64,000 nt of DNA, from positions 192,112 through 256,111 of the forward strand of contig CAJTUK010000004.1 in NCBI GenBank assembly GCA_910579525.1, given 5' to 3'. This DNA is from an uncultured Christensenella sp. (lineage in GTDB: Bacteria > Bacillota > Clostridia > Christensenellales > Borkfalkiaceae). Position numbers and translations under genes: made by a program. Below are positions 1,158 to 56,069 of this stretch, piece by piece. The first letter of the stretch is position 1. Each line of letters starts with the position of its first letter. Below the pieces are notes generated by a model that searched no databases, was not told where the DNA came from, and saw only the letters and a list, made by a program, of their open reading frames with translations.

Positions 1158-1170
1158 AAGTTTTTAAAAA

Positions 1171-2547: not shown

Positions 2548-2564
2548 ATTTACCTCTTTAAATG

Positions 2565-2594
2565 CAAAAATACGGACCGCCGTAAGGCAGTCCG
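2565..2594 (-). terminator. Rho-independent terminator after rpmF
   Basis: On the minus-strand RNA: 9-bp stem CGGACUGCC/GGCGGUCCG (one G-U), UUAC loop, then UAUUUUUG, a few nt after the rpmF stop. Confidence 0.6.
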
Positions 2595-2602
2595 CAGATT
2601 TG

Positions 2603-2794
2603 TTAATTTGCTTTCTTTTCGTCCTTGGACACTACTTCGACTTTATCGTAGTAGCCGCAATTCCCGCAAACTTTATGAGCCTCTTTCAATTCATGACAAT
2701 GAGGACATTCAACGAGCGTAGGAGCCGTTGCCTTGTAGTTTGCAAACCTTTTATTAGTTCTGCTTTTGGACTGTTTGCCCTTGGGTACTGCCAT
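2603..2794 (-). CDS. rpmF: 50S ribosomal protein L32
   Basis: 63-aa ORF starting MAVPKGKQSKSRTNKR, with zinc-ribbon cysteines CPHC...CGNCG. Conserved DUF177-rpmF gene pair. Confidence 0.95.
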   Translation of the reverse strand: MAVPKGKQSKSRTNKRFANYKATAPTLVECPHCHELKEAHKVCGNCGYYDKVEVVSKDEKKAN

Positions 2795-2816
2795 CTTTTA
2801 CACCTCTTTTTATAAT

Positions 2817-3221
2817 TTATTTAGGTACGTCAATACCCGTGCAGTCTTCTTTACATAGTAAAACGCTGGGCTGACTTATAAGTATTGCATCATCCACGGC
2901 GGTTTTAAGATTAATTCTTATGCCGTCGTAAAAATAATTATCGCCGTCATGCTCGGGAACAAAAAGTATATCCGACGTGAATTCGGTAAGCTTTTGAGCA
3001 TCTTTTAAGCAATAAGAGCAGTGTCCCGAAATTCTGTAACTTACCGTGAGTCTTACCCCCACGCAATCGTCATCATAAATTTCGTATTCACCCGAAACCT
3101 TAACCGCACCCGAAATCTCACTCAACGGCACCAAACAAAGATTATTTTCAGGCAAATATTCAAACTGAAAGTTCCCCGTGTATTTTTTTAGCGCGTTAAG
3201 CTTTTTTACTTCAATTTCCAT
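2817..3221 (-). CDS. YceD/DUF177 family protein
   Basis: 134-aa acidic ORF directly upstream of rpmF, the classic DUF177-rpmF arrangement. C-terminal Cys residues typical of the family. Confidence 0.75.
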   Translation of the reverse strand: MEIEVKKLNALKKYTGNFQFEYLPENNLCLVPLSEISGAVKVSGEYEIYDDDCVGVRLTVSYRISGHCSYCLKDAQKLTEFTSDILFVPEHDGDNYFYDGIRINLKTAVDDAILISQPSVLLCKEDCTGIDVPK

Positions 3222-3239
3222 AATGTAGCTGACCTTAAG

Positions 3240-3269
3240 ATTATAATATAGTTAAAAAACCTTTGTCAA
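3240..3269 (-). promoter_or_regulatory. Sigma-70-type promoter for the DUF177-rpmF operon
   Basis: Minus strand reads TTGACA, 18-nt spacer, TATAAT, ending about 20 nt upstream of the DUF177 start codon. Confidence 0.5.
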
Positions 3270-3296
3270 CTCATTTTTACGGCGCAAAAATAAATT

Positions 3297-4493
3297 TTAT
3301 AAAAGTTCAGCCGTTTCCCTGGCGATAACGAGTTCTTCATTCGTCGGAATTACTAAAACTTTAACTTTGGAATTGTTTTTGGAAATCTCGCGAATATTCC
3401 CGTCGTTTTTAGCTTTATTCGCCCGTGAATTGAACTTAACGCCAATGAATTCGAGCCCTTTGCACACATTTTCACGCACATAAGGCGTATTTTCACCTAT
3501 TCCGGCGGTAAACACAATACAGTCAAGTCCGCCCATAGCCGCAGCGTAGGCGCCAACGAATTTTTTAACCTGATAAGAGAACATATCCAGCGCAAGAACG
3601 CATCTTTCATTCCCTTTCTTCATTCCCGATTCGAGATCTCTGAAATCGCTCGAAACTCCCGAGATTCCGGCAACACCGCACTTTTTATTGAGATATGTAA
3701 CAGTGTCGGCGTGAGAAAGCCCTTTTTTCCTTGCAAGGAATTCAACCGCAGAGGCGTCTATGTCGCCTGAACGCGTTCCCATAAGCACGCCGGCAAGCGG
3801 AGTAAATCCCATAGAGGTATCAACGCACTTGCCGCCGTCCACAGCGGAAATAGAAGAGCCGTTGCCAAGATGGCATGTTACTATTTTCAAATCTTCGGGA
3901 TTTTTTCCAAGGTATTTTGCCGCTTCGGCAGATACAAACTTATGACTGGTACCATGTGCGCCGTATTTTCTTACTCCGAATTCCTTATAATCGTTATAAT
4001 CTATACCGTAAAGGTACGCCTTGGGAGGCATAGTTGCATGGAACGAAGAATCAAACACGAGCGCCATGGGCGTACCGGGCATAACTTCCATACATGCCCT
4101 TAATCCGGTGGCTGCCGCAGGATTGTGCAAAGGAGCAAGTTCAAACGTCTTTTCTTCAAGAGTTTTGAGGACTTCGGGCGTGACAAGCGTGGTCTTTTTA
4201 AAATATTCACCGCTCGCAACTATTCTGTGTCCCACAGCGTCTATTTCTTTCATTGACTTAATAACGCCGATTTCTTCGTCCAAAAGCGCGTCAAGTACCA
4301 GTTTTATAGCTTCTTTATGGTCGGGCATGCTCTGTTTATAAATTTTCTCGCCGCCGTTCCCTTTAGCTTTTAATAGCGAACCGCGTATTCCTATGCGTTC
4401 GCATCCGCCCTTTGCCAATACTTTTTCAGTTTCCATATCAATAAGCTGATATTTGAGCGAAGAACTACCTGCGTTTACTACTAAAATTTTCAT
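3297..4493 (-). CDS. ackA: Acetate kinase
   Basis: 398-aa ORF. N-terminus MKILVVNAGSSSLKYQL, plus HRIVASGE, GAHGTSH and TCHLGNGSS motifs of acetate/propionate kinases. Confidence 0.95.
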   Translation of the reverse strand: MKILVVNAGSSSLKYQLIDMETEKVLAKGGCERIGIRGSLLKAKGNGGEKIYKQSMPDHKEAIKLVLDALLDEEIGVIKSMKEIDAVGHRIVASGEYFKKTTLVTPEVLKTLEEKTFELAPLHNPAAATGLRACMEVMPGTPMALVFDSSFHATMPPKAYLYGIDYNDYKEFGVRKYGAHGTSHKFVSAEAAKYLGKNPEDLKIVTCHLGNGSSISAVDGGKCVDTSMGFTPLAGVLMGTRSGDIDASAVEFLARKKGLSHADTVTYLNKKCGVAGISGVSSDFRDLESGMKKGNERCVLALDMFSYQVKKFVGAYAAAMGGLDCIVFTAGIGENTPYVRENVCKGLEFIGVKFNSRANKAKNDGNIREISKNNSKVKVLVIPTNEELVIARETAELL

Positions 4494-4512
4494 ATTTATT
4501 CTCCCTTAATTT

Positions 4513-5517
4513 TTATTCTGCCTGTAATGCGGTAACAGCAACGGTTGCCACGATATCTTCAACATTGCAACCGCGAGATAAATCGTTCAAAGGTTTTGCA
4601 AATCCCTGACAAATGGGACCTACCGCCATATACCCGCCAAAGCGTTGCGCTATTTTGTAACCGATGTTACCCGCGTTAATATTGGGGAAAACGAAAACGT
4701 TTGCATGCCCCGCAACTTTAGAACCGGGAGCTTTGAGTTGCCCGACTTCGGGAGCAACCGCCGCGTCAAACTGGAATTCGCCGTCAAGCGCGAGATTAGG
4801 AGCCGCCGCTTTTGCAAGAACCGTAGCTTGCTGAACTTTAGGAACTGTTTGCGTGAATTTATCGTCGTTTCCGCTACCTTTCGTCGAAAACGAAAGCATA
4901 GCGACTCTCGGTTCGATTCCTGCTATATCTTTTGCCGTTTTTGCCGAAGAAACGGCTATATCGGCGAGTTGTTCCGCGGTAGGTTCGATATTAATCGCGC
5001 AGTCGCCGAAAACGGCAACACCGTCAGGGTTATAAGGATTTGATTTGTCGGGAGCAATCATAATAAAACAACTCGAAACGGTTTTGATTCCTGGAGCGGT
5101 TTTAACAACTTGTAATCCGGGGCGCAGAGTGTTCGCCGTAGAATGGCACGCGCCCGAAACGTAGCCGTCCACATCGCCAGCTTTAAGCATAAGCGCACCG
5201 AACATCGTCCTGTCTTTAGCTTGTTCGCTTGCCTGCTCCTCCGTCATACCTTTAGACTTTCTGGCTTCGTAAAGTATTTTCGCATACTCCGCGGTTTTGG
5301 AAGAAGTAAGCGGATCCACAAGCGTCACTCCCGTCAAATCCACATCAGGCGCAACTTTTTTACATTCATTCTCGTTACCGATAAGCACGATTTTGGCAAT
5401 ACCTTCTTTAGTTATGCGCGCCGCAGCTTCCACCACGCGCTTGTCCTCCCCCTCGCAAAGAACTATAGTCTTTTTTCTGGCGGCGGCTTTCATTTTTATT
5501 TCTTCCAATAATGACAT
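4513..5517 (-). CDS. pta: Phosphate acetyltransferase
   Basis: 334-aa ORF with full-length similarity to short-form Pta (GDxxRVVEAA, SGAxHSTAxT, DCAINIxP, NIGYK motifs). Forms a pta-ackA operon. Confidence 0.93.
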   Translation of the reverse strand: MSLLEEIKMKAAARKKTIVLCEGEDKRVVEAAARITKEGIAKIVLIGNENECKKVAPDVDLTGVTLVDPLTSSKTAEYAKILYEARKSKGMTEEQASEQAKDRTMFGALMLKAGDVDGYVSGACHSTANTLRPGLQVVKTAPGIKTVSSCFIMIAPDKSNPYNPDGVAVFGDCAINIEPTAEQLADIAVSSAKTAKDIAGIEPRVAMLSFSTKGSGNDDKFTQTVPKVQQATVLAKAAAPNLALDGEFQFDAAVAPEVGQLKAPGSKVAGHANVFVFPNINAGNIGYKIAQRFGGYMAVGPICQGFAKPLNDLSRGCNVEDIVATVAVTALQAE

Positions 5518-5932: not shown

Positions 5933-6610
5933 ATGACATTGGCACTCATTGTGCTTGTGGTCTTCTTGATTGTGTGGTTCAACCAATCCGCAAAGATCAA
6001 GGGCAACAAACACACTCACAGGAAGCGCACCATCACAAATGTTCCGTTGCAAGATGAGCTTGGTGCAAAAAACTTCAAAAAAATAATTGACGACTTAAGC
6101 GCTCTGCCATCGTCTAATACGTTGTCTGGTGATAGCTTAATGGATGCAATCGAAAGCTTGTATCAAGAGTACGACCTGCCGGACAGACGCACACCAGAAC
6201 AGAGAACTACGGACAGGGCAAAGTATTTGGCGACTATCTCATCTGCAAGAGAGGATGAAGAATATCCTATGGATGACTCAAAACTCCCTCTTATTGATAG
6301 AATTTGGCATTACCCTTTTGATGCGCCGCTTATAGACCGCCCAGACCTTCTCGTTGGCATTCCAAACACAATCATTGAGGTTGACGGCATTAAATATAAA
6401 TATGACCACCGCGGCATTCCTACGAACTTGTATCAGTCGATACCCGCTAAGCTCGTCGGAGACTTAAAGGTTCTTCTTACAATGCGAGAACTTGACGCGG
6501 CTGGATACAAATATAGTTGGAACAGACAAGCAGCAAATTGGCAGCGCGCCGAAATAGCTGCTGAGCAATATAAAGAAACGAAGAAAAAATACCCGTGGCT
6601 TTATAGATAA
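5933..6610 (+). CDS. Membrane-anchored hypothetical protein (prophage-edge gene)
   Basis: 225-aa ORF with a good RBS. N-terminal hydrophobic helix TLALIVLVVFLIVWF followed by a basic stretch. No motif recognised. Confidence 0.6.
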   Translation: MTLALIVLVVFLIVWFNQSAKIKGNKHTHRKRTITNVPLQDELGAKNFKKIIDDLSALPSSNTLSGDSLMDAIESLYQEYDLPDRRTPEQRTTDRAKYLATISSAREDEEYPMDDSKLPLIDRIWHYPFDAPLIDRPDLLVGIPNTIIEVDGIKYKYDHRGIPTNLYQSIPAKLVGDLKVLLTMRELDAAGYKYSWNRQAANWQRAEIAAEQYKETKKKYPWLYR

Positions 6611-6611
6611 A

Positions 6612-6803
6612 TCAATCGCAGTGTTTAGGGTTGCATCCCATCGCAACCCTCATTGCGTCGGTCATTATCTTCCACTCATCTTCGCTAATCAGAATAGCCT
6701 TGCCTGAGTTGGTTTGTATTGCATAGAAATTTTCTCCCATCGACGCATTATTGATAAAGTCGTCGGCGCGGTCAAGGAACTCATTCAATTTTAACTCTTT
6801 CAT
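6612..6803 (-). CDS. Small Phd/YefM-antitoxin-like protein (possible regulator)
   Basis: 63 aa counted from the ATG at 6803, which has a GAGGTG SD. The ORF-track start at 6815 has no SD. The sequence ...NSGKAILISEDEWKIMTDAMRV resembles the Phd/YefM strand-helix core. Has its own promoter. Confidence 0.45.
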   Translation of the reverse strand: MKELKLNEFLDRADDFINNASMGENFYAIQTNSGKAILISEDEWKIMTDAMRVAMGCNPKHCD

Positions 6804-6831
6804 ATGGCACCTCATTGGAAATTATATATAC

Positions 6832-6860
6832 ATTATATAATAAGTGAGCGCCAAAGGCAA
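6832..6860 (-). promoter_or_regulatory. Sigma-70-type promoter for the 63-aa gene
   Basis: Minus strand reads TTGCCT, 17-nt spacer, TATAAT. Divergent from the early promoter at 6943. Confidence 0.5.
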
Positions 6861-6942
6861 GACAAAAGCAGCCGTATTAGAAAATGTAATTGAAAACGGC
6901 AAAAATGTAAAAAAAATTTTTAAGAAAATCGTCAAAAATCTC

Positions 6943-6971
6943 TTGACATTTTCTTTTTACTATGCTATTAT
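6943..6971 (+). promoter_or_regulatory. Early rightward sigma-70-type promoter (extended -10)
   Basis: TTGACA (6943-6948), 17-nt spacer, TGcTATTAT (-10 at 6966-6971). Confidence 0.6.
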
Positions 6972-6989
6972 AAAACATATTTAGACACA
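6966..6989 (+). promoter_or_regulatory. Conserved element copy A (TATTATAAAACATATTTAGACACA)
   Basis: Exact 24-mer also present at 10102-10125. Contains the core ACATATTTAGACAC shared by four sites. Confidence 0.6.
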
Positions 6990-7039
6990 TAATAGGATAA
7001 GTGCCGCCATTTTACAGATGCGGCTTACTTAATAAATAA

Positions 7040-7060
7040 TATACGACATATTTAGACACA
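7040..7060 (+). promoter_or_regulatory. Conserved element copy B (TATACGACATATTTAGACACA)
   Basis: The 20-mer TATACGACATATTTAGACAC is identical to the minus-strand copy at 61614-61633. Ends 12 nt before the ATG at 7073. Confidence 0.6.
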
Positions 7061-7072
7061 ACGGAGAGAACT

Positions 7073-7159
7073 ATGATTTACTTTATGTTAGGTCTTATGT
7101 GTGGGGCTTTGCTTGCCCTACTATACATAGATGGCGATCAAAGACCGCCAAGATATTAA
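7073..7159 (+). CDS. Small hydrophobic peptide (28 aa)
   Basis: ATG at 7073 preceded by a GGAGAG SD. Sequence MIYFMLGLMCGALLALLYIDGDQRPPRY. A better gene model than the 7099-7311 track ORF, which has no SD. Confidence 0.4.
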   Translation: MIYFMLGLMCGALLALLYIDGDQRPPRY

Positions 7160-8596: not shown

Positions 8597-9445
8597 ATGG
8601 AGAACAATTCGCTTGGCGACAGAATGAAAGAGTATGAAAATATATCAAGAATATATTTGACTAAGCGTAGCCCTGTTATCATTCGTATCGATGGCAAAGC
8701 ATTCCACAGCTTTACAAAAGGGTTCATTCGCCCTTTTGATAAAATGCTTATGGAAACTATGGCTGAAACGGCGAAGTTCCTCGCCGAAAACATTTCTGGA
8801 TGCAAGCTTGCATATACACAGTCGGACGAAATCAGCCTACTTCTCACGGATTATGACACAATTAAGACGCAACCGTGGTTCGAGAACAATCTTCAGAAAC
8901 TTGTAAGTATTGCGGCAAGTATGGCAACCTTGCAGTTCAACAGAATATTCACTACCAAGGTTGGCGACATTAAACGCACGAAACATCACCTTGTTTTTAA
9001 GGACGTCAACGAAGAGAGTGATGAAAGCAGCATAAAGGATCTTACGAGATATTGTGATTCTCTTTCAAAATCACAACAGGCAGGAGCAATGTTCGATGCA
9101 AGAGCTTTTATACTACCAAAGGAAGAAGTTGTTAACTACTTTATATGGCGTCAGCAAGATGCAACGCGCAATTCAATTCTTATGGTTGCTCAATCGTGTT
9201 TTTCCCACAAAGAAATGCAAGGGATTAAGTGCGACGCCCTGCAAGAAAAGTTATTTAGCGAACGTAACATCAACTGGAACGATTACACAATACCTCAAAA
9301 GCGCGGTACTTGTATTAGAAGACAAACAACTTTAAGAAATGATGTAGAGCGTCACGAATGGATTATCGACACTAATATACCGATATTCACACAAGATAAA
9401 GATTATATAAATAAACTTGTATTTGGAGAACAGACAAATGAATGA
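8597..9445 (+). CDS. tRNA-His guanylyltransferase (Thg1)-like protein, 3'-5' nucleotidyltransferase
   Basis: 282 aa. Thg1-family pattern GDRMKEYE, RIDGKAFHSFTKGF, PFD, AYTQSDEISLLL. Confidence 0.8.
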   Translation: MENNSLGDRMKEYENISRIYLTKRSPVIIRIDGKAFHSFTKGFIRPFDKMLMETMAETAKFLAENISGCKLAYTQSDEISLLLTDYDTIKTQPWFENNLQKLVSIAASMATLQFNRIFTTKVGDIKRTKHHLVFKDVNEESDESSIKDLTRYCDSLSKSQQAGAMFDARAFILPKEEVVNYFIWRQQDATRNSILMVAQSCFSHKEMQGIKCDALQEKLFSERNINWNDYTIPQKRGTCIRRQTTLRNDVERHEWIIDTNIPIFTQDKDYINKLVFGEQTNE

Positions 9446-21352: not shown

Positions 21353-21952
21353 ATGTCGAAAGATTACTCTCATATCACACTGTTAGTTGATATGGACGAC
21401 ACGATAGAAAACTTACTTCCGGCGTGGGCGGAATGGTTGAACAAGAAACACGGAACGTCTGTTAAGACTGACGATATAACGGGTTGGGATGTTCAAAAAT
21501 TCTTCCCATCATTAAGTAAAGATGAGGTTTACGCCCCTTTATATGAAGACGAATTTTGGGGAACAGTACAACCAAAAGAAGATGCTATCCACCACCTCTC
21601 ACGTATCAATGAGTTGGGCTTTAAGTTATACATCTGTACCAACTCAAACTATCAAACAATACGTCGCAAGTTGGAATACATCCTCGATAGATACTTCCCG
21701 TTTATTTCTTGGTGGAATGTTATCACGATATGTAGCAAGCAACTCATCAATGCTGACATTTTGGTGGACGACGGCGTACATAATCTTCTTGGCGGTTCGT
21801 ACAAAAAGATTTTGATGACCGCATCACACAATAAAGCTTTCGACGCCAACGCAAACGGTATGGTGAGAGTAAATAATTGGCAAGAAGCCTACGACAAAAT
21901 AATTGAATATGCCGACCAAATTTTGGCTGGCAAAACGGAGATAGCTAAATGA
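21353..21952 (+). CDS. 5'(3')-deoxyribonucleotidase (HAD family)
   Basis: 199 aa. HAD motif I VDMDDT, a downstream TNS motif and VDD. Confidence 0.7.
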   Translation: MSKDYSHITLLVDMDDTIENLLPAWAEWLNKKHGTSVKTDDITGWDVQKFFPSLSKDEVYAPLYEDEFWGTVQPKEDAIHHLSRINELGFKLYICTNSNYQTIRRKLEYILDRYFPFISWWNVITICSKQLINADILVDDGVHNLLGGSYKKILMTASHNKAFDANANGMVRVNNWQEAYDKIIEYADQILAGKTEIAK

Positions 21953-24084
21953 AGATAGTTAAAAAAGACGGAACATTATCTGAATACAACGACGCAAAAA
22001 TTATTAACGCAATCAGCAAATCTGCCGAGCGCGTACTGGTAAAATTTACGGACGAAGAGATTCGGCAAGTATGCGACAAGGTCAAATCAAGGCTCCCTCA
22101 ACAAGAAGAGATAAGCATTCTCGAAATGCACAGATTAGTTGAGACCGCGCTTGACGAGGTTAACCCGAAAGTCGCAAAAAGCTACAGAGACTACCGCAAC
22201 TATAAGCAAGACTTCGTACACATACTCGACAAAGTATTTAAGAAGTCGCAAACGATACGATACATAGGCGACAGAGACAACGCCAACACGGACAGCGCGC
22301 TCGTACCTACGCAAAGAAGTCTCATCTACAACGAGCTGAACGGAGAGCTTTATAAGAAGTTCTTCTTGAACGTCGAAGAACGTGCGGCTATGAATGAAGG
22401 ATACATTTACATCCACGATAGATCCGCGCGCTTAGATACAATGAACTGCTGTTTATTTGATATTGCAAAGGTTCTTGCCGGCGGCTTTGAAATGGGCAAC
22501 GTTTGGTACACAGAACCTAAAACATTGGATGTTGCGTTCGACGTTATCAGTGACATCACGATAAGCGCAGCCGCTTGTCAGTACGGCGGGTTCACTATCC
22601 CCCGCGTTGACACAATCTTGGCGCCGTATGCTCAAAAGAGCTACGAAAAATATAAGCGCGAGTTTTACGCTATCGCATCCGTGTTAAACAACTCTGGCAA
22701 GACCGTAGACGAACAAGCCGACATATATGCAGAGCGTAAGGTACGCCGCGATTTTGAACAAGGCTTCCAGTCTTGGGAGTACCGCTTCAACACCGTCGGC
22801 AGTAGCCGCGGCGACTACCCTTTCATCGCAACATCATTCGGTATCGGCACAAGCCGCTGGGAGCAGATGGCTACGGAAGTTATTTTAAGGACACGTATGG
22901 GTGGTCAAGGCGCGACAGGTCACAAGAAACCTGTGCTCTTCCCCAAGCTCACCTTCTTGTATGACGAGAATTTACACGGCGAAGGCAAACCTATGGAGTA
23001 CTTATTTGACACGGCAGTCGAATGTTCAAGTAAATCTATGTACCCAGACTTCCTCTCCCTCACGGGCGAAGGCTACATACCGAGTATGTACAAAAAGTAC
23101 GGCAAGGTCGTATCGCTTATGGGTTGTCGCGCGTCCCTTTCGCCTTGGTATGAGCGCGGCGGTATGGAACCTGCCGACGAGAATGATACGCCGATTTTTG
23201 AAGGAAGATTTAACCTCGGCGCAATCAGTTTGCATCTTCCGATGATATTGCAAAAAGCGCGCCAAGAGAACAGAGATTTCTACGAAACGCTTGACTATTA
23301 TCTGCAACTCATCAGGGGATTGCACAAAAAGACCTATGACTATCTCGGCGAAAAGCTCGCGTCCACCAACCCTCTTGGTTATTGCCAAGGCGGCTTCTAC
23401 GGCGGAACGCTCAGCCCCGACGACAAGATAAAGCCACTTCTCAAGCCAATGACTATGAGCTTCGGTATCACGGCTCTGAACGAACTTCAACAACTCTACA
23501 ACAAAAAGTCAATTGTTGAGGACGGAGAATTTGCCCTTGAAGTTATGAGGCATATCAATGCTAAGGTAACGGAGTTCAAAAAAGAAGACGGTATCTTATA
23601 TGCAATCTACGGCACGCCCGCCGAAAGCCTTGCAGGACTGCAAGTAGAACAGTTCCGTAAGAAGTACGGCATCATCCAGAATGTATCCGACAGATTGTAC
23701 GTTTCAAACAGCTTCCACTGCGGCGTATGGGAAGACATCACTCCCATCGAAAAGCAAGATTATGAGCGCCGTTTTTGGGATTTGTTCAACGGCGGCAAGA
23801 TACAATATTGCCGTTATCCCGTCTCATACAACAAAGACGCAATAAAAACGCTCATCAGACGTGCAATGGACTTTGGATTTTATGAGGGCATTAACCTCTC
23901 GCTCTCCTACTGTGAAGACTGTGGGTATGAACAGCTGGATATGGATAAGTGTCCGAAATGCGGAAGCGAACTCATCACGAAGATTGACCGAATGAACGGC
24001 TATCTCGGCTACACAAGGGTACACGGGCGCACAAGGTACAACGACGCAAAGAACGCTGAAATCAAAGACAGGATTTCAATGTGA
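21949..24084 (+). CDS. nrdD: Anaerobic ribonucleoside-triphosphate reductase (class III)
   Basis: 711 aa. N-terminal ATP-cone-like region, a C-terminal Zn site CEDCG...CPKCG, then a glycyl-radical-type NGYLGY loop. Followed by nrdG. Confidence 0.88.
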   Translation: MKIVKKDGTLSEYNDAKIINAISKSAERVLVKFTDEEIRQVCDKVKSRLPQQEEISILEMHRLVETALDEVNPKVAKSYRDYRNYKQDFVHILDKVFKKSQTIRYIGDRDNANTDSALVPTQRSLIYNELNGELYKKFFLNVEERAAMNEGYIYIHDRSARLDTMNCCLFDIAKVLAGGFEMGNVWYTEPKTLDVAFDVISDITISAAACQYGGFTIPRVDTILAPYAQKSYEKYKREFYAIASVLNNSGKTVDEQADIYAERKVRRDFEQGFQSWEYRFNTVGSSRGDYPFIATSFGIGTSRWEQMATEVILRTRMGGQGATGHKKPVLFPKLTFLYDENLHGEGKPMEYLFDTAVECSSKSMYPDFLSLTGEGYIPSMYKKYGKVVSLMGCRASLSPWYERGGMEPADENDTPIFEGRFNLGAISLHLPMILQKARQENRDFYETLDYYLQLIRGLHKKTYDYLGEKLASTNPLGYCQGGFYGGTLSPDDKIKPLLKPMTMSFGITALNELQQLYNKKSIVEDGEFALEVMRHINAKVTEFKKEDGILYAIYGTPAESLAGLQVEQFRKKYGIIQNVSDRLYVSNSFHCGVWEDITPIEKQDYERRFWDLFNGGKIQYCRYPVSYNKDAIKTLIRRAMDFGFYEGINLSLSYCEDCGYEQLDMDKCPKCGSELITKIDRMNGYLGYTRVHGRTRYNDAKNAEIKDRISM

Positions 24085-24091
24085 GGTACGT

Positions 24092-24592
24092 ATGAACTAT
24101 CATAATATTTTACACGACAATATGTTAAACGGCGACGGGTTGCGTGTTGTTCTCTTCGTATCGGGTTGTGAACATCACTGTAAAGGATGTCACAATCCAC
24201 AGACGCACGCCCCATCCTCTGGCATTCCGTTCACACGGGCTGAGGAAGATGAAATCTTTGAACAACTTTCAAAGCCATACATACAAGGGTTGACGCTTAC
24301 GGGCGGCGATCCGTTGCACCATTGCAACTACACAACTCTTCTCGCTCTCTGTAAAAAAGTCAAAGCAACATTTCCCAAAAAGAATATATGGCTCTACACT
24401 GGGTATCGTATCGAAGATATCCCAGAGGAAATGCAAGAAATCTTCCAGTATATAGATACAATTGTTGACGGACGGTTCGTCGAGGAATTAAAAGATGTAA
24501 ACCTTCCCTACGTTGGTTCTTCCAACCAAAGGATTATCCGCTTAAATAAAAGAATATTTGCTACCCTCAAGGTTGGCAATTTTAAGGAGTAA
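24092..24592 (+). CDS. nrdG: Anaerobic RNR activating radical-SAM protein
   Basis: 166 aa. Radical-SAM cluster CEHHCKGC, and GLTLTGGDP. Confidence 0.88.
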   Translation: MNYHNILHDNMLNGDGLRVVLFVSGCEHHCKGCHNPQTHAPSSGIPFTRAEEDEIFEQLSKPYIQGLTLTGGDPLHHCNYTTLLALCKKVKATFPKKNIWLYTGYRIEDIPEEMQEIFQYIDTIVDGRFVEELKDVNLPYVGSSNQRIIRLNKRIFATLKVGNFKE

Positions 24593-24598
24593 TACATA

Positions 24599-25084
24599 AT
24601 GAATAAATTTGAAAAAGTTTCAAAGAAGCAATATGACTTGGACGCATGGGGCGGCAAGCATATGGCTGACTACGATGACATAAAACTTCCCCACCGCGCT
24701 ACGAAGTGCAGCGCAGGCTACGACATTTATGCCACCATCGGTTTTGAACTCCCTCCCGGCGAATCTATCAAGTTCCCTACGGGTATCAAGGTTTCGCTTG
24801 ACGACAATAAGTTCCTTATGGTTGTTCCTCGTAGCAGTCTTGGGTTTAAGTACAGAGCGCAACTCGATAACACGGTCGGCATCATCGACGCAGACTACTA
24901 CAACAATTCCAACAACGAAGGACACATCTGGGTTAAGATAACTAACGACTCAAAGCGCGGCGATACGCTCGTCGTGAACAAGGGCGACGCTATCGCTCAG
25001 GGTATCATCCTTGAGTACTTCAAGACTGACGATGACAATGCAGACGGAGTAAGAAACGGCGGTCTCGGTAGCACCTCAAAATAG
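24599..25084 (+). CDS. dut: dUTP diphosphatase (trimeric dUTPase)
   Basis: 161 aa. SAGYDIYA, PRSSLG, GIIDADYY and C-terminal RNGGLGST motifs. Confidence 0.88.
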   Translation: MNKFEKVSKKQYDLDAWGGKHMADYDDIKLPHRATKCSAGYDIYATIGFELPPGESIKFPTGIKVSLDDNKFLMVVPRSSLGFKYRAQLDNTVGIIDADYYNNSNNEGHIWVKITNDSKRGDTLVVNKGDAIAQGIILEYFKTDDDNADGVRNGGLGSTSK

Positions 25085-25191: not shown

Positions 25192-25665
25192 ATGATACAA
25201 ATATTAGACGAGAGAACAATGAGACAGTTAATTATAGCAAGAAAAGATTTGAATATGTCAGCTGGGAAATTGGCGGCGCAATGCTGCCATGCCTCTATGG
25301 CATTTTTAACTAAACCACTTAGAGACCAATCAAGAATAATTAAATCAACTGCCACGGGGAATAAAACATTTTCTATAACTTTACCATCAAGTATTTGTGA
25401 TGAATGGATTTGTGGTATATTCACAAAAACTATCTGCGCGGCAAAGAATTATAACCATCTTATGAAGGCTATCACAATGGCTCGTGAGCTTGGTCTGGTT
25501 GAAGGCAAGGATTTCTTTCTTATCAAAGATAATTGTCTTACTGAACTCAAGCCAGAAGAAATTGATGAGAACGGCGTCGGCAGAACTCTTACTTGCATCG
25601 GTTTCCGCCCACTCGAAGATGACATCGCTCATTTAATAAGCAAAAAATTTCAGCTTTATAAATAA
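25192..25665 (+). CDS. PTH2-family peptidyl-tRNA hydrolase
   Basis: 157 aa. ARKDLNMSAGKLAAQCCHASMAF, IKDNCLTELKPEE and TCIGFRP match the archaeal/eukaryotic-type Pth2 pattern. Confidence 0.75.
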   Translation: MIQILDERTMRQLIIARKDLNMSAGKLAAQCCHASMAFLTKPLRDQSRIIKSTATGNKTFSITLPSSICDEWICGIFTKTICAAKNYNHLMKAITMARELGLVEGKDFFLIKDNCLTELKPEEIDENGVGRTLTCIGFRPLEDDIAHLISKKFQLYK

Positions 25666-26846: not shown

Positions 26847-27272
26847 TTAGTCTTTGAAATATTTATCGCCGAGCCGCGTTGCCCAACCCTCGAACCATAT
26901 GCTATCGTAATCTGGTAAATCGTGATATCTCTTCTTGCCGCTACGTACAAGTATCTCCCTGTACCAATAGCGTATGCAAGACGGTATGCTTACCAAGAAC
27001 GGCATAAATACGCCAAGCATAATATTCTGTAAGCCGTGCCCGCTTTCGTGGCGCCTGATGCTGAATGTAGGGTTCTTGTTTGTCACGAAGAAACATCCGC
27101 ACTCAAAGCCGCCCCAATTTTCCCCTATTTCAAAATAAATGAGGTAATGGAATCTGTGGGGCTTATGCCCCGTCACCATCAACGCGACAGCAACGAGGCA
27201 GCCCACTAACGTCATAGGAAGACCCCACGTAAATGAGGCTATCCAAAAGCCTATTGCCTTAAGCTTCTTCAT
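26847..27272 (-). CDS. Membrane protein with HExxH zinc-peptidase-like motif
   Basis: 141 aa. Two or more hydrophobic segments and HESGH at residues 75-79. Overlaps the holin stop. Confidence 0.5.
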   Translation of the reverse strand: MKKLKAIGFWIASFTWGLPMTLVGCLVAVALMVTGHKPHRFHYLIYFEIGENWGGFECGCFFVTNKNPTFSIRRHESGHGLQNIMLGVFMPFLVSIPSCIRYWYREILVRSGKKRYHDLPDYDSIWFEGWATRLGDKYFKD

Positions 27273-27720: not shown

Positions 27721-28839
27721 TCACGACCAATAGAACAATCGCACGTAAAGGTCGTGTATTCTTTGTCTCGCCCAATACGAGTTAAACTTTAGCTGATGAC
27801 CACGCCACGAACACCACGATGTCATAACGTCTTCAAAAGTCATCTTGCCCTCGTCAACCCAACGCTTGAACGTTTTTAATTTTCTACGCATAAGCGTAAT
27901 ATTCTTTCTGTACGGCTTGCGGACTATCTTTCCTGTCTTGGTTAAAATGAAATGTGTCTTAAGGAAGTTGATACCGCGGCTCAACTTTACGATTTGTGTC
28001 TTCTTGGTGTTTAGCTTTATGCCAAGCTCTGTGCAAATCTCCGTAATCTTTTTTAAGCAATATTGTAGATGTTCCTTACTGTGGTGTATCAGGCACCCAT
28101 CGTCCATATAACGGCAGTAATACTTGATACCAAGTTGTTCCTTGATATAGTGATCCATTTTGTTTGGGAGTGCTAATGCACAACTCTGCGATATCTGGCT
28201 CCCAAGCCCAAGACCATTTTCACCAAAGTCATCTACTAATTGTTTGACAATAGCGTACAGTCTATCATCAGTGATTTTCTCGCGTAATATCTTCAACAGC
28301 GCAACGTGGTCAATGCTATTAAAGTATTTTGAGAAATCAAAAACGAGGGCATAACCCTCGCTACCGTAATGTCTGTAATATTTTTCCAAATGTCTATTCA
28401 TTCGGTTGAGTGCAAAGTCAATTCCTCTGAGCTTTATACAAGCACCGTTATCGTAGATAAAAGAGCGCTTTAATATTGGAACCAAACTGTAATCACATAG
28501 GCATCTCTGCACTACACGCTCGCTAATATGAACGCTTTGAATGTGCCTTGGCTTACCTCGTTCGATTATATTAAACTCATAAAATCCTTTGCTTTTGAAT
28601 GTTCCATCACGCAACATCTTATATGTAGAATTTACGTTGAGCAGAGCATTCGTTCTGTATTTGTGGGTGCTGGATTTCCAACCCACACCTTTGCAACATT
28701 GTTTGTAACTATGATATAAGTTATCAAACGTGAAGACTTTATTGTAATCACAATAAATTTCATCAAATTTCCTTTTCTTCTCGAGGCGTTTTTGTTTACG
28801 TCTCTGATACCTTAGTTCATGTCTTTCCTTGCTATTCAT
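27721..28839 (-). CDS. DGR reverse transcriptase
   Basis: 372 aa. YMDD catalytic box (CRYMDDGCLI) and GLGLGSQISQSCALALPN (the DGR-typical xGxxxSQ motif). Lies next to the TR. Confidence 0.9.
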   Translation of the reverse strand: MNSKERHELRYQRRKQKRLEKKRKFDEIYCDYNKVFTFDNLYHSYKQCCKGVGWKSSTHKYRTNALLNVNSTYKMLRDGTFKSKGFYEFNIIERGKPRHIQSVHISERVVQRCLCDYSLVPILKRSFIYDNGACIKLRGIDFALNRMNRHLEKYYRHYGSEGYALVFDFSKYFNSIDHVALLKILREKITDDRLYAIVKQLVDDFGENGLGLGSQISQSCALALPNKMDHYIKEQLGIKYYCRYMDDGCLIHHSKEHLQYCLKKITEICTELGIKLNTKKTQIVKLSRGINFLKTHFILTKTGKIVRKPYRKNITLMRRKLKTFKRWVDEGKMTFEDVMTSWCSWRGHQLKFNSYWARQRIHDLYVRLFYWS

Positions 28840-29054
28840 AAAAATTATATACCTTGTACAGTGAAATCATTGTGGAAAATAACTGCATAGTAGTACCTAC
28901 CATTAAACGCGCTACCACAATCACGCGCAATGCAAGAAGCGTCCGGTAGACCACATCAAAATATTCATTTATCCTTACGGAAAGGTCATAAGCCCCTTTT
29001 GTACTCGTACTGATTTCGTTCCTCAATTGGAATTACTGTGTCTGACATTATCGT

Positions 29055-29179
29055 ACAAAATCCGAAAGCGACGCCGTTACTGTTGTTGGCATTGTTGTTA
29101 TTGCTGTTACCGTTGTTGTTGACATAGCAGAAGTTGTTGCTATTATTGTAATACGGAGAGCGAAGCCACCAGTTGCACG
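29055..29179 (-). repeat. DGR template repeat (TR)
   Basis: 125 nt homologous to 30072-30196. Adenine-rich on the minus strand (39 As, many AAY codons). Confidence 0.9.
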
Positions 29180-29226
29180 CCACGACAAATGTTTAACGGC
29201 TCATAACCTGTGTATAAAAAATCGCC

Positions 29227-29646
29227 TTACGATTCCTGAGTGGTTTCTTTAAGGCGTTCTTTATCTTTTTTCTTGACGGCGGAAATTAGTTTGGCTTCCG
29301 CTTCTATCAAGTCCATCCACGCACACCACGTGTTCGACTTAACTTCTTCACCAAACATTTCTTTCGCAACGTCAAGTTGGGAAATTAAGCACTGCAAATC
29401 GCAGTTTGCCCTCGTGAGATAATCTCTGCGCATCTGCACCTCTAACTCACCAGAAGGGAAAACGCTATTTGCTGCCTTGACATTATTGTACACCGATTGC
29501 GATAACCGCACGATTTCGGTCGTAATGAAAAAAGTATATCGTTTTGGAAATTTGACACAATTTCTTAAGGTGAAAATCTCTAACTGTCTTGCAGTCTCTA
29601 TGAATTGTAACTGCGATTCATGTCTATCATGCTTATGTACTGACAT
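29227..29646 (-). CDS. avd: DGR accessory variability determinant (Avd-like)
   Basis: 139 aa, helical and basic. Occupies the canonical slot between target and TR. Resembles the four-helix-bundle Avd / 23S-IVS protein family. Confidence 0.75.
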   Translation of the reverse strand: MSVHKHDRHESQLQFIETARQLEIFTLRNCVKFPKRYTFFITTEIVRLSQSVYNNVKAANSVFPSGELEVQMRRDYLTRANCDLQCLISQLDVAKEMFGEEVKSNTWCAWMDLIEAEAKLISAVKKKDKERLKETTQES

Positions 29647-29679
29647 CTTTAACTCCTTATTGTGTCTTTATTTTTTTGT

Positions 29680-29997
29680 TTATTCTTCGTCTTCCCGTTC
29701 TTCGTGTTCGGGTTGAACGTATTTGATTGCCTCAAAATACTCTTCGTCTTTAACGTCTATATCTCCTATCAGAACAGACGGGCTCGCGCCAAGACCAAGA
29801 TATCTATCGATGTTATCCTGAGGGTTCTTCATATACCAGCCGACGTTCTCACCTGCAAATTTATATATCAAGTGATAGTTGCCGCAGATATGTAGTTCGT
29901 TGTTGGCTATATATCCCTGCCCGTTGGATGCTACAAAGATTAGCTTTTCCGCCTCGCTATGCGCATCGGGCGTAGGTTTGAAGTAGAATTGATCCAT
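29680..29997 (-). CDS. Hypothetical acidic protein inside the DGR cassette
   Basis: 105 aa with an AGGAGG SD. C-terminal EHEEREDEE. No motif recognised. Confidence 0.55.
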   Translation of the reverse strand: MDQFYFKPTPDAHSEAEKLIFVASNGQGYIANNELHICGNYHLIYKFAGENVGWYMKNPQDNIDRYLGLGASPSVLIGDIDVKDEEYFEAIKYVQPEHEEREDEE

Positions 29998-30023
29998 ACT
30001 TGTCCTCCTTGTTAGTTTTTAAT

Positions 30024-30044
30024 TCCGCCACATAACGTGGCGGA
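30024..30044. promoter_or_regulatory. GC-rich hairpin just 3' of the VR
   Basis: TCCGCCAC, 5-nt loop, GTGGCGGA, 22 nt past the target stop codon. Confidence 0.5.
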
Positions 30045-30065
30045 TTTTTTTGTTTCGATATGAGA

Positions 30066-31076
30066 TTAAACACAAAAGCCGAAAGCGACGCCGCCACTGC
30101 CGCTGGCACCGATGCCATTGCTGTAACCGAGGGTGGCGACATAGCAGAAGTAGCCGCTACTACCGGAACACGGAGAGCGAAGCCACCAGGCGCACGATGT
30201 TGTCGCACTGTCCCCTTGTGCCTTTGCGTTATTAAAGTTATAATAAACGTTACTTGATGTAGTCTTCTCTTGTCCAAATCTGTTGTCGTACTTGTTTGCT
30301 ACTGCGGTATCGGAAGTATAGAAACAACCCGTACCTTCAAGCACTGAAAACGCCCCCGTTCCTGTTTTTGGGTTAGGTATGGGAGCATTCTTGAAGTACT
30401 CATACTGCTCGCCTTCATTAGGGAACGACATCTGAGAAGTTTTCGAGTACATATTGTTACCCATAACTTCGCGCTGCGAGAATAAGAATAATTTATCGGA
30501 AGTTGTATCAAGTGCGCCACCCCGATCATATCTCGCCGTAACTTTATCGACTGGTTTTATCACTGCCTTAACTTCGTCGGGAAGAAGCCCATAAAGAGTT
30601 TGCATTGTTGAAGTTCTCATCGTGCTTTCAGACCATCCGCCAGCGTTTGTACTGGTTGGGTTCATCACGTAGTTCGTTGATAAACAGTTTTTCATTCCAA
30701 GCGTCACGCCCGCTTTACCACCGCCCGTAAGATTATCGTGGTTAAACCCAAGGATAACCATCGTAATTTTCTCGCCAGTAGATAAAATGATTTCTTTCTC
30801 GTCACCAACACTCCACACTACCGAGGCAAGCCCCGCTTCTGAAAGTGTTTTAATTGTGCTCCACGACGCGCCAGCAAAAGAGCTGTCCTTAGACAAGCCG
30901 ACAAGCGCATTGAGCTTACCATCCATCGTACCGAGCTTATCCATTACGGCTTCGTACTCTGTCTTTGCAGCATAATGTTGTTGTATATCGTTTCCAGCCG
31001 CATCGTAAGTTGCAGCCAACGGAATATCTACCATTGTCCCGCTTGCGGTTTTACCTTGTAATTTATATCCCGCCAT
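30066..31076 (-). CDS. DGR target protein: tail-fibre/receptor-binding protein with C-terminal variable C-type-lectin-like (DUF1566-type) domain
   Basis: 336 aa. C-terminus CAWWLRSP...GVAFGFCV parallels the TR-encoded NWWLRSP...GVAFGFC. Located at the distal end of the tail-fibre cluster. Confidence 0.85.
   Translation of the reverse strand: MAGYKLQGKTASGTMVDIPLAATYDAAGNDIQQHYAAKTEYEAVMDKLGTMDGKLNALVGLSKDSSFAGASWSTIKTLSEAGLASVVWSVGDEKEIILSTGEKITMVILGFNHDNLTGGGKAGVTLGMKNCLSTNYVMNPTSTNAGGWSESTMRTSTMQTLYGLLPDEVKAVIKPVDKVTARYDRGGALDTTSDKLFLFSQREVMGNNMYSKTSQMSFPNEGEQYEYFKNAPIPNPKTGTGAFSVLEGTGCFYTSDTAVANKYDNRFGQEKTTSSNVYYNFNNAKAQGDSATTSCAWWLRSPCSGSSGYFCYVATLGYSNGIGASGSGGVAFGFCV
30072..30196 (-). 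repeat. DGR variable repeat (VR)
   Basis: The last ~41 codons of the target gene. 98 of 125 positions are identical to the TR, and all 27 differences lie at TR adenines. Confidence 0.9.
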
Positions 31077-54554: not shown

Positions 54555-56069
54555 TCACTTATTTGCGTTTGTATCATCGTCGCGCGTCTCTTCGCCCGCA
54601 TCGCCCAAGTCATTGTCCGAACTTTGCGGTCTTCCGCCGCTTTTATCACTGGACGTATAAGCGCTCTTCAACGGACGCAGTTTATCGAACGGGATAAGCT
54701 CGCTCTCGAGATAAGTAAGCCCCTCGATGTCGCACTGTGGAATACCGAGCGTTGCCGCATATTGCGACTTGCCGATACCAAACGCGACTGCCTCTTTGTA
54801 ATATTTCAAGTATTCTTCTTTGTTGAATACCGTAATAGGTAAAATGGTTATCTTAAACTTTGTGGTACCAGAGAACCCTACCTTTAAGTATCTGTTGATT
54901 ACCTTTTCAACTTGCTGTACCATACCGAGCACATATGTCTCGTCGTTCTTAATAGCAAGTTTAGCCACACCGCTTGTGCTATTCTCTCTGCCGTGCAGTA
55001 ATCCAGACGTACCAGCCGTTGACCAGAAGTTTGCCACCGCATTTGATAAGTCATCTACATCTGCAACGCCGCTCTTGTTCTCAAAGCCAAATGCCTCGAA
55101 CTCGAACGGAGATAGCGCAAGTCCTACATTTTCGCCAAGCGCATTAGCGATATGCGCATAATACTTGGATACAATGTCATCTGGCATAAGCGAATTGCCT
55201 TTATCGTCTGTCGGTACTTTGCCCGCGAGCATCTTATAATTCTTCAATTCCTTCGCGGTCTCTTGAAGCGCCTCGGTATTGGCAATCGTGTACAACGACG
55301 GCATAACTGCCGCAAATGGCGGTATAGTGTAATCTATCAACGTACTATCTGCCTTGATGCAAACAGAAATCTCAACTGGAACTTCTTGCCATTGGTCACC
55401 CGTCGCGATGTAATTGTTATACATCTTCGTAAATTCCGCTGGGAAAAACTCAAGTTTGCTTGCAATCTTGGTCATATCGACTTTATACAAGAAGCTTCCA
55501 TCACATATTGATGTAATTCTACAGTAATCGGGGTCTAATTGCTGGATGAAAGCAGAGTTGTTGTCGCTAAGCAAAACGCCATAAAATGCCCCGTCACGTA
55601 ATGCGATGAGAATCTCCTCTCTTAAAATGTTAGGAATATTCATAAGCTCAATAGCTTTTGATACCTTCCTATACTGCTTAGCAAAATTATCTTTTACGGA
55701 TCCGTCAAATCCCAGCGGGGAAATAACGTATGCACCGGTATACAATCCGGCATAATAGTTCAACAACCTATTATAGTGCATCGATGACAAATACATATAG
55801 TTCGATGCGTCACGCAAACTCTTTTCGTTGGATGAACTCGTTGGCGCTTGCAACCATTTGAGAATATTCTCCTTGGTGTAAACAGAATACGAGCGTGATT
55901 TTTTTGAAGAAGCATTTTGAGGATTATACGTAAGTTGACGCATTAACGCTTTCGCAAAATATAACGGCATCTCAACCATCTGTTGCTGGTTGTTACGGCT
56001 CGGATTGTTTCTTCGATTGTTTGGTCGATGGTTATTATTGCGATTGCGGTTATAATTGTCTTTCGCCAT
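54555..56069 (-). CDS. Portal protein
   Basis: 504 aa, directly downstream of and overlapping the large terminase. Asn/Arg-rich N-terminus and acidic C-terminus. Confidence 0.7.
   Translation of the reverse strand: MAKDNYNRNRNNNHRPNNRRNNPSRNNQQQMVEMPLYFAKALMRQLTYNPQNASSKKSRSYSVYTKENILKWLQAPTSSSNEKSLRDASNYMYLSSMHYNRLLNYYAGLYTGAYVISPLGFDGSVKDNFAKQYRKVSKAIELMNIPNILREEILIALRDGAFYGVLLSDNNSAFIQQLDPDYCRITSICDGSFLYKVDMTKIASKLEFFPAEFTKMYNNYIATGDQWQEVPVEISVCIKADSTLIDYTIPPFAAVMPSLYTIANTEALQETAKELKNYKMLAGKVPTDDKGNSLMPDDIVSKYYAHIANALGENVGLALSPFEFEAFGFENKSGVADVDDLSNAVANFWSTAGTSGLLHGRENSTSGVAKLAIKNDETYVLGMVQQVEKVINRYLKVGFSGTTKFKITILPITVFNKEEYLKYYKEAVAFGIGKSQYAATLGIPQCDIEGLTYLESELIPFDKLRPLKSAYTSSDKSGGRPQSSDNDLGDAGEETRDDDTNANK

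Follow-up and report, generated by a model that had tools for sequence, protein, structure and literature searches.

The 105-aa gene and retroelement described here lie in a 64,000-nucleotide (nt) stretch of contig CAJTUK010000004.1 from an uncultured Christensenella sp. (GenBank assembly GCA_910579525.1, forward-strand positions 192,112 to 256,111), which we call the window. An earlier reading of the letters, the sequence-only reading, had proposed that part of this DNA is a complete diversity-generating retroelement (DGR). It listed, from right to left, a target gene, a 105-aa open reading frame (ORF), an Avd-like gene, a template repeat (TR) and a reverse transcriptase (RT), and each of these parts was recovered where it had been placed, in that order and on the minus strand (Table 1). 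The description of the cassette as compact and intact also holds, as it spans ~3.4 kb, every component is full length and in frame, and the RT keeps its YMDD motif. That reading offered itself for refutation on three points, the placement of the RT, the fold of the target and population variation in the VR; all three were examined, the last by comparing relatives, and none contradicts it. We regard the locus as very probably an intact DGR of the avd-TR-RT type, carried inside an integrated siphovirus-like prophage.

Table 1 Parts of the retroelement and adjoining features, given as window positions
Feature	Position	Strand	Basis
DGR target gene, 336 aa	30066–31076	minus	ORF; product ends ...CAWWLRSP...GVAFGFCV
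Variable repeat (VR)	30072–30196	minus	125-nt repeat partner of TR; codons ~294–335 of target
GC-rich hairpin	30024–30044	minus	DNA fold; 27 nt downstream of VR
105-aa ORF (ORF105)	29680–29997	minus	strong Shine-Dalgarno AAGGAGG; purifying selection; small family
Avd-like gene, 139 aa	29227–29646	minus	PHROG 3206; synteny
TR, 39 adenines	29055–29179	minus	125-nt repeat partner of VR
RT-2 RNA (RF03077)	28829–29050	minus	Rfam cmscan, 130.1 bits
DGR-type RT, 372 aa	27721–28839	minus	RVT_1, PHROG 1423, PDB match 8ub7_A

The two repeats differ at template adenines only

A single long repeat occurs between 27 and 32 kb of the window, a pair of 125-nt copies that are 78% identical. On the coding strand there are 27 differences between the copies, and every one of them falls on an adenine of the copy nearer the RT, so that 27 of its 39 adenines and none of its 86 other nucleotides are changed (17 A>G, 6 A>C and 4 A>T). 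The probability of all 27 differences landing on the 39 adenines is 2e-18 (hypergeometric), and this restriction identifies the copy beside the RT as the TR and the copy within the target gene as the VR. An adenine-masked scan with the TR found no further VR or remote target in the 64-kb window.

The VR lies in frame over codons 294–335 of the 336-codon target, at the extreme C-terminus of the protein. In the frame of the target the TR reads CNWWLRSPYYNNSNNFCYVNNNGNSNNNNANNSNGVAFGFC, with 19, 19 and 1 adenines at the first, second and third codon positions. It contains 16 AAY codons, and a stop codon cannot be reached by mutation. Because almost all of the adenines are at position one or two of AAY, TAY and AGY codons, about 22 residues would be randomised without stops, giving a theoretical repertoire of ~2.7e22 protein variants. 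The sole adenine at a third codon position, in a GGA codon, is TR nucleotide 119 (window position 29061, matched by 30078 in the VR).

Hypervariation of the VR among natural relatives

Scanning IMG/VR with the RT sequence returned eight loci with 95–96% RT identity and two others at 61% and 53%; the related loci compared with the window carry labels of the form L001, L003. The whole cassette was aligned between the window and five complete relatives. Among these six loci the mean pairwise difference is 0.08–0.19 in coding DNA, 0.008 in the TR, 0.015 in the RT-2 RNA described below, and 0.18 in the VR. Variation within the VR is confined almost completely to columns that are adenine in the TR, of which 35 of 39 vary (pi 0.55), against 3 of the 86 other columns (pi 0.012; Fisher p 5e-23). 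The TR itself is identical at 124 of 125 positions in five relatives (122 of 125 in L001), and the coding DNA of these loci differs by 8–19%.

The few departures are informative. All three non-adenine differences in the VR occur in L001, and two of them mirror a change from TCTCCG to TCACCC in its own TR. At another site the TR of the window has an adenine and the other TRs a guanine; the VRs of those other loci uniformly have guanine, and the VR of the window has cytosine. A template change that reappears in the VR, together with guanine being kept where the template is guanine, is the expected signature of TR-to-VR transfer.

Protein databases give a similar picture. Two 90%-identity clusters around the target contain 257 and 338 distinct sequences. 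In 13 full-length sequences above 90% identity, 20 of the 25 variable positions lie within residues 296–328, with up to nine residue types at one position, and variation is concentrated in the same way in the second cluster. Moreover, L009, L010, L011, L013, L017, L021 and L026 each have an adenine-restricted TR/VR pattern of their own. Adenine-restricted hypervariation among natural relatives thus supports, from sequence comparison, DGR activity at the level of the lineage.

We also considered whether the element is a DGR by descent that is now inactive in this prophage, its VR differences being a historical record. All of the evidence for activity is between samples, and the seemingly frameshifted RT of L015 indicates that decay occurs in the clade. 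However, all parts of the cassette are full length and in frame with the catalytic YMDD in place, and the TR and RT-2 are far more constrained than the coding DNA beside them (pi 0.008 and 0.015 versus 0.08–0.19). Mismatches at non-adenine positions, which would accumulate after inactivation, are absent between TR and VR, and hundreds of distinct VR variants are found within the 90%-identity clusters. An inactive element is on this evidence improbable.

Among solved structures, the reverse transcriptase is closest to that of Bordetella phage BPP-1

The RT matches the Pfam family RVT_1 (E 3e-17) and PHROG 1423 (E 3e-86). Its best match among all PDB sequences is chain A of 8ub7 (E 3.5e-23, 86 bits), and a tblastn search of the aligned chain sequence against phage records identified this as brt, with 100% identity to the gene products of Bordetella phages BPP-1, BMP-1 and BIP-1. 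Group II and 'retron-type' RTs among the PDB sequences reach only 33–35 bits (E 1e-7 for group II), and the nearest solved relative is thus the BPP-1 enzyme bRT, in line with the placement put forward in the sequence-only reading. The two motifs named there are both present, LGSQISQ at residues 212–218 (nt 28186–28206) and YMDD at residues 244–247 (nt 28099–28110). DGR RTs carry the signature [I/V/L]GxxxSQ rather than QGxxxSP (PMC7826257), and LGSQISQ fits the former and not the latter. Adenine mutagenesis by bRT is promoted by Arg74 and by Ile181, with which the signature begins (PMC7826257); Arg98 of the RT described here aligns with Arg74. Together these sequence features support membership of the DGR family.

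An alternative is that the repeat pair and RT belong to another kind of retroelement, such as a retron, a group II intron or an abortive-infection (Abi) or DRT defence RT, and that the adenine bias is coincidental. NCBIfam does report matches of the RT to a group II RT/maturase model (83 bits) and to Drt3a (55 bits), but both are far under the cutoffs of 300 and 200 bits, as are all its NCBIfam scores. The bRT leads the solved matches by 50 bits, QGxxxSP is absent and LGxxxSQ present, and the adenine-restricted pattern (p 2e-18) recurs in every relative. The RT-2 RNA is, in addition, too small and too one-sided to fit a group II intron. We give this explanation practically no credence. Retron, group II and DRT identities of the RT were accordingly rejected, on the NCBIfam scores far below cutoff and the DGR motif.

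Two observations concern the RT neighbourhood in relatives. In L015, from a Christensenella metagenome-assembled genome (MAG), the RT match (6001–7148) is split between two frames, 6001–6408 and 6411–7148; this may be a frameshifted RT of a decaying DGR, or an assembly error. In L021, whose RT is 80% identical, a ToxN_toxin gene (type III toxin-antitoxin/abortive infection) is found at 8758–9276, ~1.5 kb downstream of the DGR RT, and the window has no equivalent at that position.

RT-2 RNA fills the interval between TR and RT

The interval that separates the TR from the RT gene contains a structured RNA, matched by the Rfam RT-2 model over its whole length (positions 1–222 of 222) at 130.1 bits against a gathering score of 40. 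The RNA begins 5 nt after the TR and overlaps the start codon and ORF of the RT by 11 nt. RT-2 is present in 13 of 13 complete TR-RT intervals with RT identity of at least 53%, namely the window and L001, L003, L005, L009, L010, L011, L012, L013, L015, L017, L021 and L026, and is absent from L018 and L019, whose RTs are 30–34% identical. Eight diverse copies share a common fold, with compensatory changes in 18 of 35 predicted pairs, and the RNA has changed little between the window and its five complete relatives (see above).

Motifs RT-1 to RT-19 were described by Weinberg et al. in 2017 as adjoining RT genes (PMC5737381). A single motif was connected with a DGR, namely RT-10, which lies between TR and RT of BPP-1; of the others it was speculated that some might serve DGRs, and RT-2 was given no retroelement class (PMC5737381). 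Rfam places RT-2 in no clan and models it as a family separate from RT-10. The copy in the window agrees with the family definition in being a full-length, high-scoring match directly upstream of an RT gene. In contrast to its unclassed state in the original paper, RT-2 here occupies the TR-RT interval of every one of 13 demonstrable DGRs, and this is direct genomic evidence that the orphan Rfam family is a DGR component in all of the DGRs examined. By analogy with BPP-1, it is a putative DGR 'spacer' RNA that would recruit RT and Avd and prime cDNA synthesis.

The 139-aa product of the gene that the sequence-only reading had called Avd-like, between the 105-aa ORF and the TR, matches PHROG 3206, 'Avd protein of DGR', over residues 1–137 (E 1e-8). 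Weak, sub-threshold matches were obtained to Pfam 23S_rRNA_IVP (E 0.064) and NCBIfam DivGenRetAVD (E 0.064, in two of eight homologues), and neither the single sequence nor an eight-sequence profile gave a meaningful match to PDB sequences. Every related DGR has this gene, with 32–93% identity, directly upstream of its TR. From this one PHROG profile and the synteny, the protein is likely to be Avd.

A conserved VR end and a downstream hairpin

The last ~22 nt of the VR (GGCGTCGCTTTCGGCTTTTGT) are GC-rich and invariant among the six aligned loci. By comparison with BPP-1 they form the putative initiation of mutagenic homing (IMH) site. TR adenine 119 is opposite a cytosine in the VR of all six loci of the window's subclade, and likewise in L013 and L021. 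The clade of L009, L017 and L026 has cytosine at position 119 in both repeats, and the difference is specific to the subclade of the window; it is plausibly the distinction between IMH and IMH*.

Beyond the VR lies a hairpin, TCCGCCAC-GTTAT-GTGGCGGA, with an 8-bp GC-rich stem, no run of T after it and a DNA folding z score of -2.75. The window shares with the L009/L017/L026 and L010 clades a hairpin 20–37 nt beyond the VR; its position is kept, and the stem sequences differ and covary. The inverted repeat is restricted to the downstream side of the VR, and the TR is followed by RT-2 instead. DGRs use a GC-rich inverted repeat downstream of the IMH for efficient homing (PMC5758913). On the model of BPP-1, the hairpin is a putative target-recognition inverted repeat of the DGR.

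The target is a DUF6273 protein at the end of the tail module

The target contains the Pfam domain DUF6273 (E 7e-18, 65.5 bits against a gathering threshold of 23.5), and its VR-containing C-terminal part aligns to profile positions 86–164. In two reports, DUF6273 domains with a C-terminal VR are documented as targets of DGRs (PMC11792537, PMC10743442). An AlphaFold2 (AF2) model built from a 56-sequence alignment has a mean confidence (pLDDT) of 88 and a pTM of 0.81. The N-terminal ~65 residues are of low confidence and are followed by the DUF6273 domain, in which the VR region is modelled as short beta-strands with pLDDT >90.

A Foldseek search of the PDB with this model gave as its best and only credible match 9qa6, the IgA peptidase (IgAse) of T. 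ramosa (probability 1.0, E 0.015, TM 0.43 over 324 columns). The N-terminal domain of IgAse (residues 31–322) is a DUF6273 domain (PMC12402451), and its experimental structure has a C-type-lectin-like core that resembles the C-terminal domain of Legionella Lcl (PMC12237041). As the Foldseek output gives no aligned residues of 9qa6, we infer that it is this N-terminal domain which was matched. In the same search matches to canonical C-type lectin domains (CTLDs) were not significant (E 2–5), and Mtd, TvpA and FGE were not recovered; searching PDB sequences with the single target sequence or its 56-sequence profile gave nothing meaningful.

The sequence-only reading had described a C-type-lectin-like module, ending in CAWWLRSP...GVAFGFCV, at the distal end of the fibre genes. 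The ending is present, and the target is the last gene of the tail module in the window and its relatives. The lectin-like character of the VR domain is supported indirectly, by the model and its route through DUF6273 to the IgAse N-terminal domain, and the expected resemblance to a canonical CTLD or to FGE did not emerge.

Since the target is last in the tail-fibre module, the likely benefit of its variation is a changed receptor specificity, that is, host range, and gene position makes it the likely receptor-binding tip. It could instead be another virion-surface or adhesion protein, for example a mucus- or glycan-binding decoration protein. One PHROG match of the target, a weak one (E 1e-6), is to a Hoc-like head decoration protein, a DUF6273 gene of the related locus L027 stands with an ORF105 homologue between portal and prohead protease genes, and DUF6273 also occurs in the secreted bacterial IgA peptidase. 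Set against these are the gene order in the window and its relatives (tape measure, minor tail/fibre, BppU-like, fibre-like 276-aa protein, target) and the best neighbours of the model in BFVD, phage proteins with DUF6273 whose annotations read tail-collar fibre or receptor-binding protein (E down to 8e-15). Distant homologues of the target, furthermore, join the Mtd N-terminal domain, Mtd_N (PF18454), with DUF6273. We think a role away from the tail tip unlikely.

ORF105 follows DUF6273 genes with or without a DGR

The variable sites of ORF105 are distributed 11/4/45 over the three codon positions, with no indels, which shows that it is coding; ORF105 is a real gene. A syntenic homologue in L009 is 43% identical. 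The family is small, with 13 clusters in a set of 5.8 billion proteins and 38 representatives in one of 1.84 billion, and it matches no Pfam domain. An AF2 model from a 14-sequence alignment was unusable (pLDDT 44), and three scans of IMG/VR, each with a single ORF105 homologue, found nothing.

In the genomic contexts of distant members, ORF105 homologues always lie directly downstream of DUF6273 genes. In L020, L021 and L026 the pair is accompanied by a full DGR. In L024/L025 and L027/L028 the homologue follows a DUF6273 gene, and RT, Avd, any TR-like repeat and RT-2 are all missing within 5 kb (pairs at L024:4021–5303 and L027:3903–5315). Portal and prohead protease genes flank the pair in L027/L028; in L027, where this is the head module, an LRR_5 protein comes after it. 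ORF105 is missing from the related DGRs L010 and L011.

ORF105 also lies behind DUF6273 genes that have no DGR close by, and it is therefore probably a partner of the fibre rather than part of the DGR machinery. Tail-fibre assembly genes follow fibre genes, and by analogy with them ORF105 is probably a partner of the DUF6273 protein, such as a chaperone or an adaptor. Its inclusion in the cassette by the sequence-only reading therefore stands as regards a genuine gene at this place, and probably fails as regards a component of the retroelement. As Wu et al. point out, an ORF lying between target and core is as a rule no component of the DGR, and in their scheme the cassette has the avd-TR-RT (B1) architecture with a nested 'X' ORF (PMC5758913).

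The contrary proposal, in which retrohoming in this clade requires ORF105 as a new accessory factor of the DGR, draws on its position between target and avd in the window, L001–L007, L009, L012, L013, L015, L017, L020, L021 and L026, and on the purifying selection acting on it. It is hard to reconcile with the homologues that follow DUF6273 genes away from any DGR part, with the DGRs that lack the gene, and with the general finding for nested ORFs, and we consider it unlikely.

In two larger proteins, P0181 (819 aa) and P0183 (721 aa), the ORF105 profile finds a match at 11 and at 4 distinct places, respectively. This sequence pattern suggests that the ORF105 fold, whole or in part, is present in larger proteins too, in the form of a tandem repeat.

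Prophage context and host

Bacterial housekeeping genes for asparaginase, a class II aminoacyl-tRNA synthetase, YceD, acetate kinase and phosphotransacetylase occupy positions 141–5517 of the window on the minus strand. Phage genes begin at ~5.9 kb and code for an ERF recombinase, a PD-(D/E)XK nuclease, primase/helicase, DNA polymerase, NrdD/NrdG, dUTPase and PTH2; those on the opposite strand code for terminase, tape measure, minor tail/fibre, a BppU-like protein and a fibre-like 276-aa protein. The window therefore holds an integrated prophage, with its left junction near 5.5–5.9 kb. No tRNA gene was found in the window. An ORF of the Phage_integrase family (58984–59976, minus strand, E 4e-17) lies ~1 kb upstream of the terminase large subunit gene (56069–57847), well inside the phage region and away from the left junction.

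The DGR is positioned between the last fibre gene and the holin gene. Tail-fibre-like and BppU-like genes lie upstream of the target, and downstream of the cassette is a holin (phrog_13712, E 7e-29). The sequence-only reading placed the cassette between the tail-fibre cluster and the lysis genes. The first of these neighbours was found as described; no endolysin is recognisable beside the holin, so the lysis genes are confirmed for the holin only. A hydrophobic 141-aa ORF (26847–27272, minus strand) overlaps the end of the holin gene and contains an HExxH-like motif, HESGH; it has no family match in Pfam, NCBIfam or PHROGs.

The prophage also carries further genes on the plus strand, at 8597–9445, 21949–24592, 24599–25084 and 25192–25665. 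The products are a Thg1-like tRNA-His guanylyltransferase, NrdD with an NrdG-like radical-SAM activase, a dUTPase and a PTH2-type peptidyl-tRNA hydrolase. Of these, the Thg1-like and PTH2-type enzymes are related to tRNA and are unusual cargo for a phage.

Close relatives of the RT were found in MAGs labelled uncultured Christensenella or Christensenellaceae, with isolate names bearing the prefix MGBC, which we take to denote a mouse-gut catalogue. In one of these MAGs a relative with 95% RT identity is on a 492-kb contig. Going by these labels, the host family of the prophage is probably Christensenellaceae. At the nucleotide level the cassette matched none of 50,697 phage records (INPHARED).

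Discussion

On the BPP-1 paradigm, the stretch comprising avd, TR, RT-2 and RT would be transcribed, and the RT and Avd-like protein would assemble on the structured RT-2 RNA just 3′ of the TR. Synthesis of cDNA over the TR would be primed from the RT-2 RNA and would be faithful except opposite adenines, where any nucleotide could be inserted. The mutagenised cDNA would then take the place of the VR in the target gene's 3′ end, guided by the IMH-like VR end and the hairpin downstream of it. In this way ~22 surface residues of a lectin-like tip would be randomised, and variants that bind available receptors would be selected.

Several points weigh against an active DGR that diversifies a lectin-like receptor-binding tip. 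Activity is judged by comparing related phages that come from different metagenomes. The difference at position 119 is fixed in all six VRs and is therefore not evidence of mutagenesis. Avd is identified by a single PHROG match and synteny, its Pfam and NCBIfam matches being sub-threshold and a PDB sequence match lacking. The link to C-type lectins runs through DUF6273 and the IgAse N-terminal domain, with Mtd, TvpA and FGE missing from the Foldseek results. Lastly, the receptor-binding role comes from gene position, and there are a DUF6273 relative in the head module of L027 and one Hoc-like PHROG match to set beside it.

The element closely resembles the DGR of BPP-1 (mtd-avd-TR-brt). Both have the one-strand order target-(X)-avd-TR-RT, adenine-specific differences between TR and VR, and a VR at the extreme 3′ end of a tail-fibre gene. 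Both have an invariant GC-rich 3′ end followed by a GC-rich hairpin, and a structured RNA between TR and RT; bRT is the closest solved homologue of the RT and shares the [I/V/L]GxxxSQ signature. The two RTs are nevertheless only ~30% identical, as estimated by eye from the aligned region. The target is a DUF6273 protein here and an Mtd-type C-type lectin in BPP-1, with no sequence or Foldseek match to 1YU0. The RNA between TR and RT is RT-2 here and RT-10 in BPP-1 (PMC5737381), an extra 105-aa gene lies between target and avd, and the TR has 39 adenines, compared with 22 counted in BPP-1 (PMC7826257). The host here is a Gram-positive gut anaerobe.

That DGRs are known from prophages of gut Firmicutes, as the sequence-only reading had stated, is correct. 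Published accounts describe the Faecalibacterium prophages Lelie, CP11, Roos and Pioen and the 'Tentaclin' phages as having DGRs with DUF6273 targets, and in tentaclins the DUF6273 domain is N-terminal and followed by Ig-like domains (PMC11792537, PMC10743442). The element described here differs in its phage lineage and in its probable host, Christensenellaceae, and neither RT-2 nor an ORF105 partner was met with in the passages of those accounts that were read (PMC11792537, PMC10743442). Given the textbook architecture and these published DUF6273-targeting DGRs of gut Firmicutes phages, the system is of a known kind.

Two additions are made to it: RT-2 in the TR-RT interval of all 13 DGRs examined, and a small protein family tied to DUF6273 genes. 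So far as we could find, neither has been assigned a role. Our proposal is that RT-2 is the dedicated scaffold and priming RNA of a large clade of Firmicutes-phage DGRs, functionally equivalent to the spacer/RT-10 of BPP-1, and that the ORF105 family is an unrecognised small partner, such as a chaperone or adaptor, specific for the C-type-lectin-like DUF6273 tip; the chances of this proposal seem to us evenly balanced.

DGRs are especially dense in gut phages, and they are the sole known natural system for targeted protein hypermutation in prokaryotes. The general understanding of DGRs is unchanged by the element, which will not surprise the specialist; it extends the catalogue and provides two testable annotations. 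It is a clean, complete and apparently active DGR in a prophage of a poorly studied gut lineage, and its compact ~3.4-kb cassette, with ~1e22 possible variants, could serve for reconstitution or engineering. It also supplies a candidate partner protein for DUF6273 receptor-binding domains. If the proposed partnership is true, ORF105 would help the hypervariable DUF6273 domain to fold or assemble whatever the sequence of its VR.

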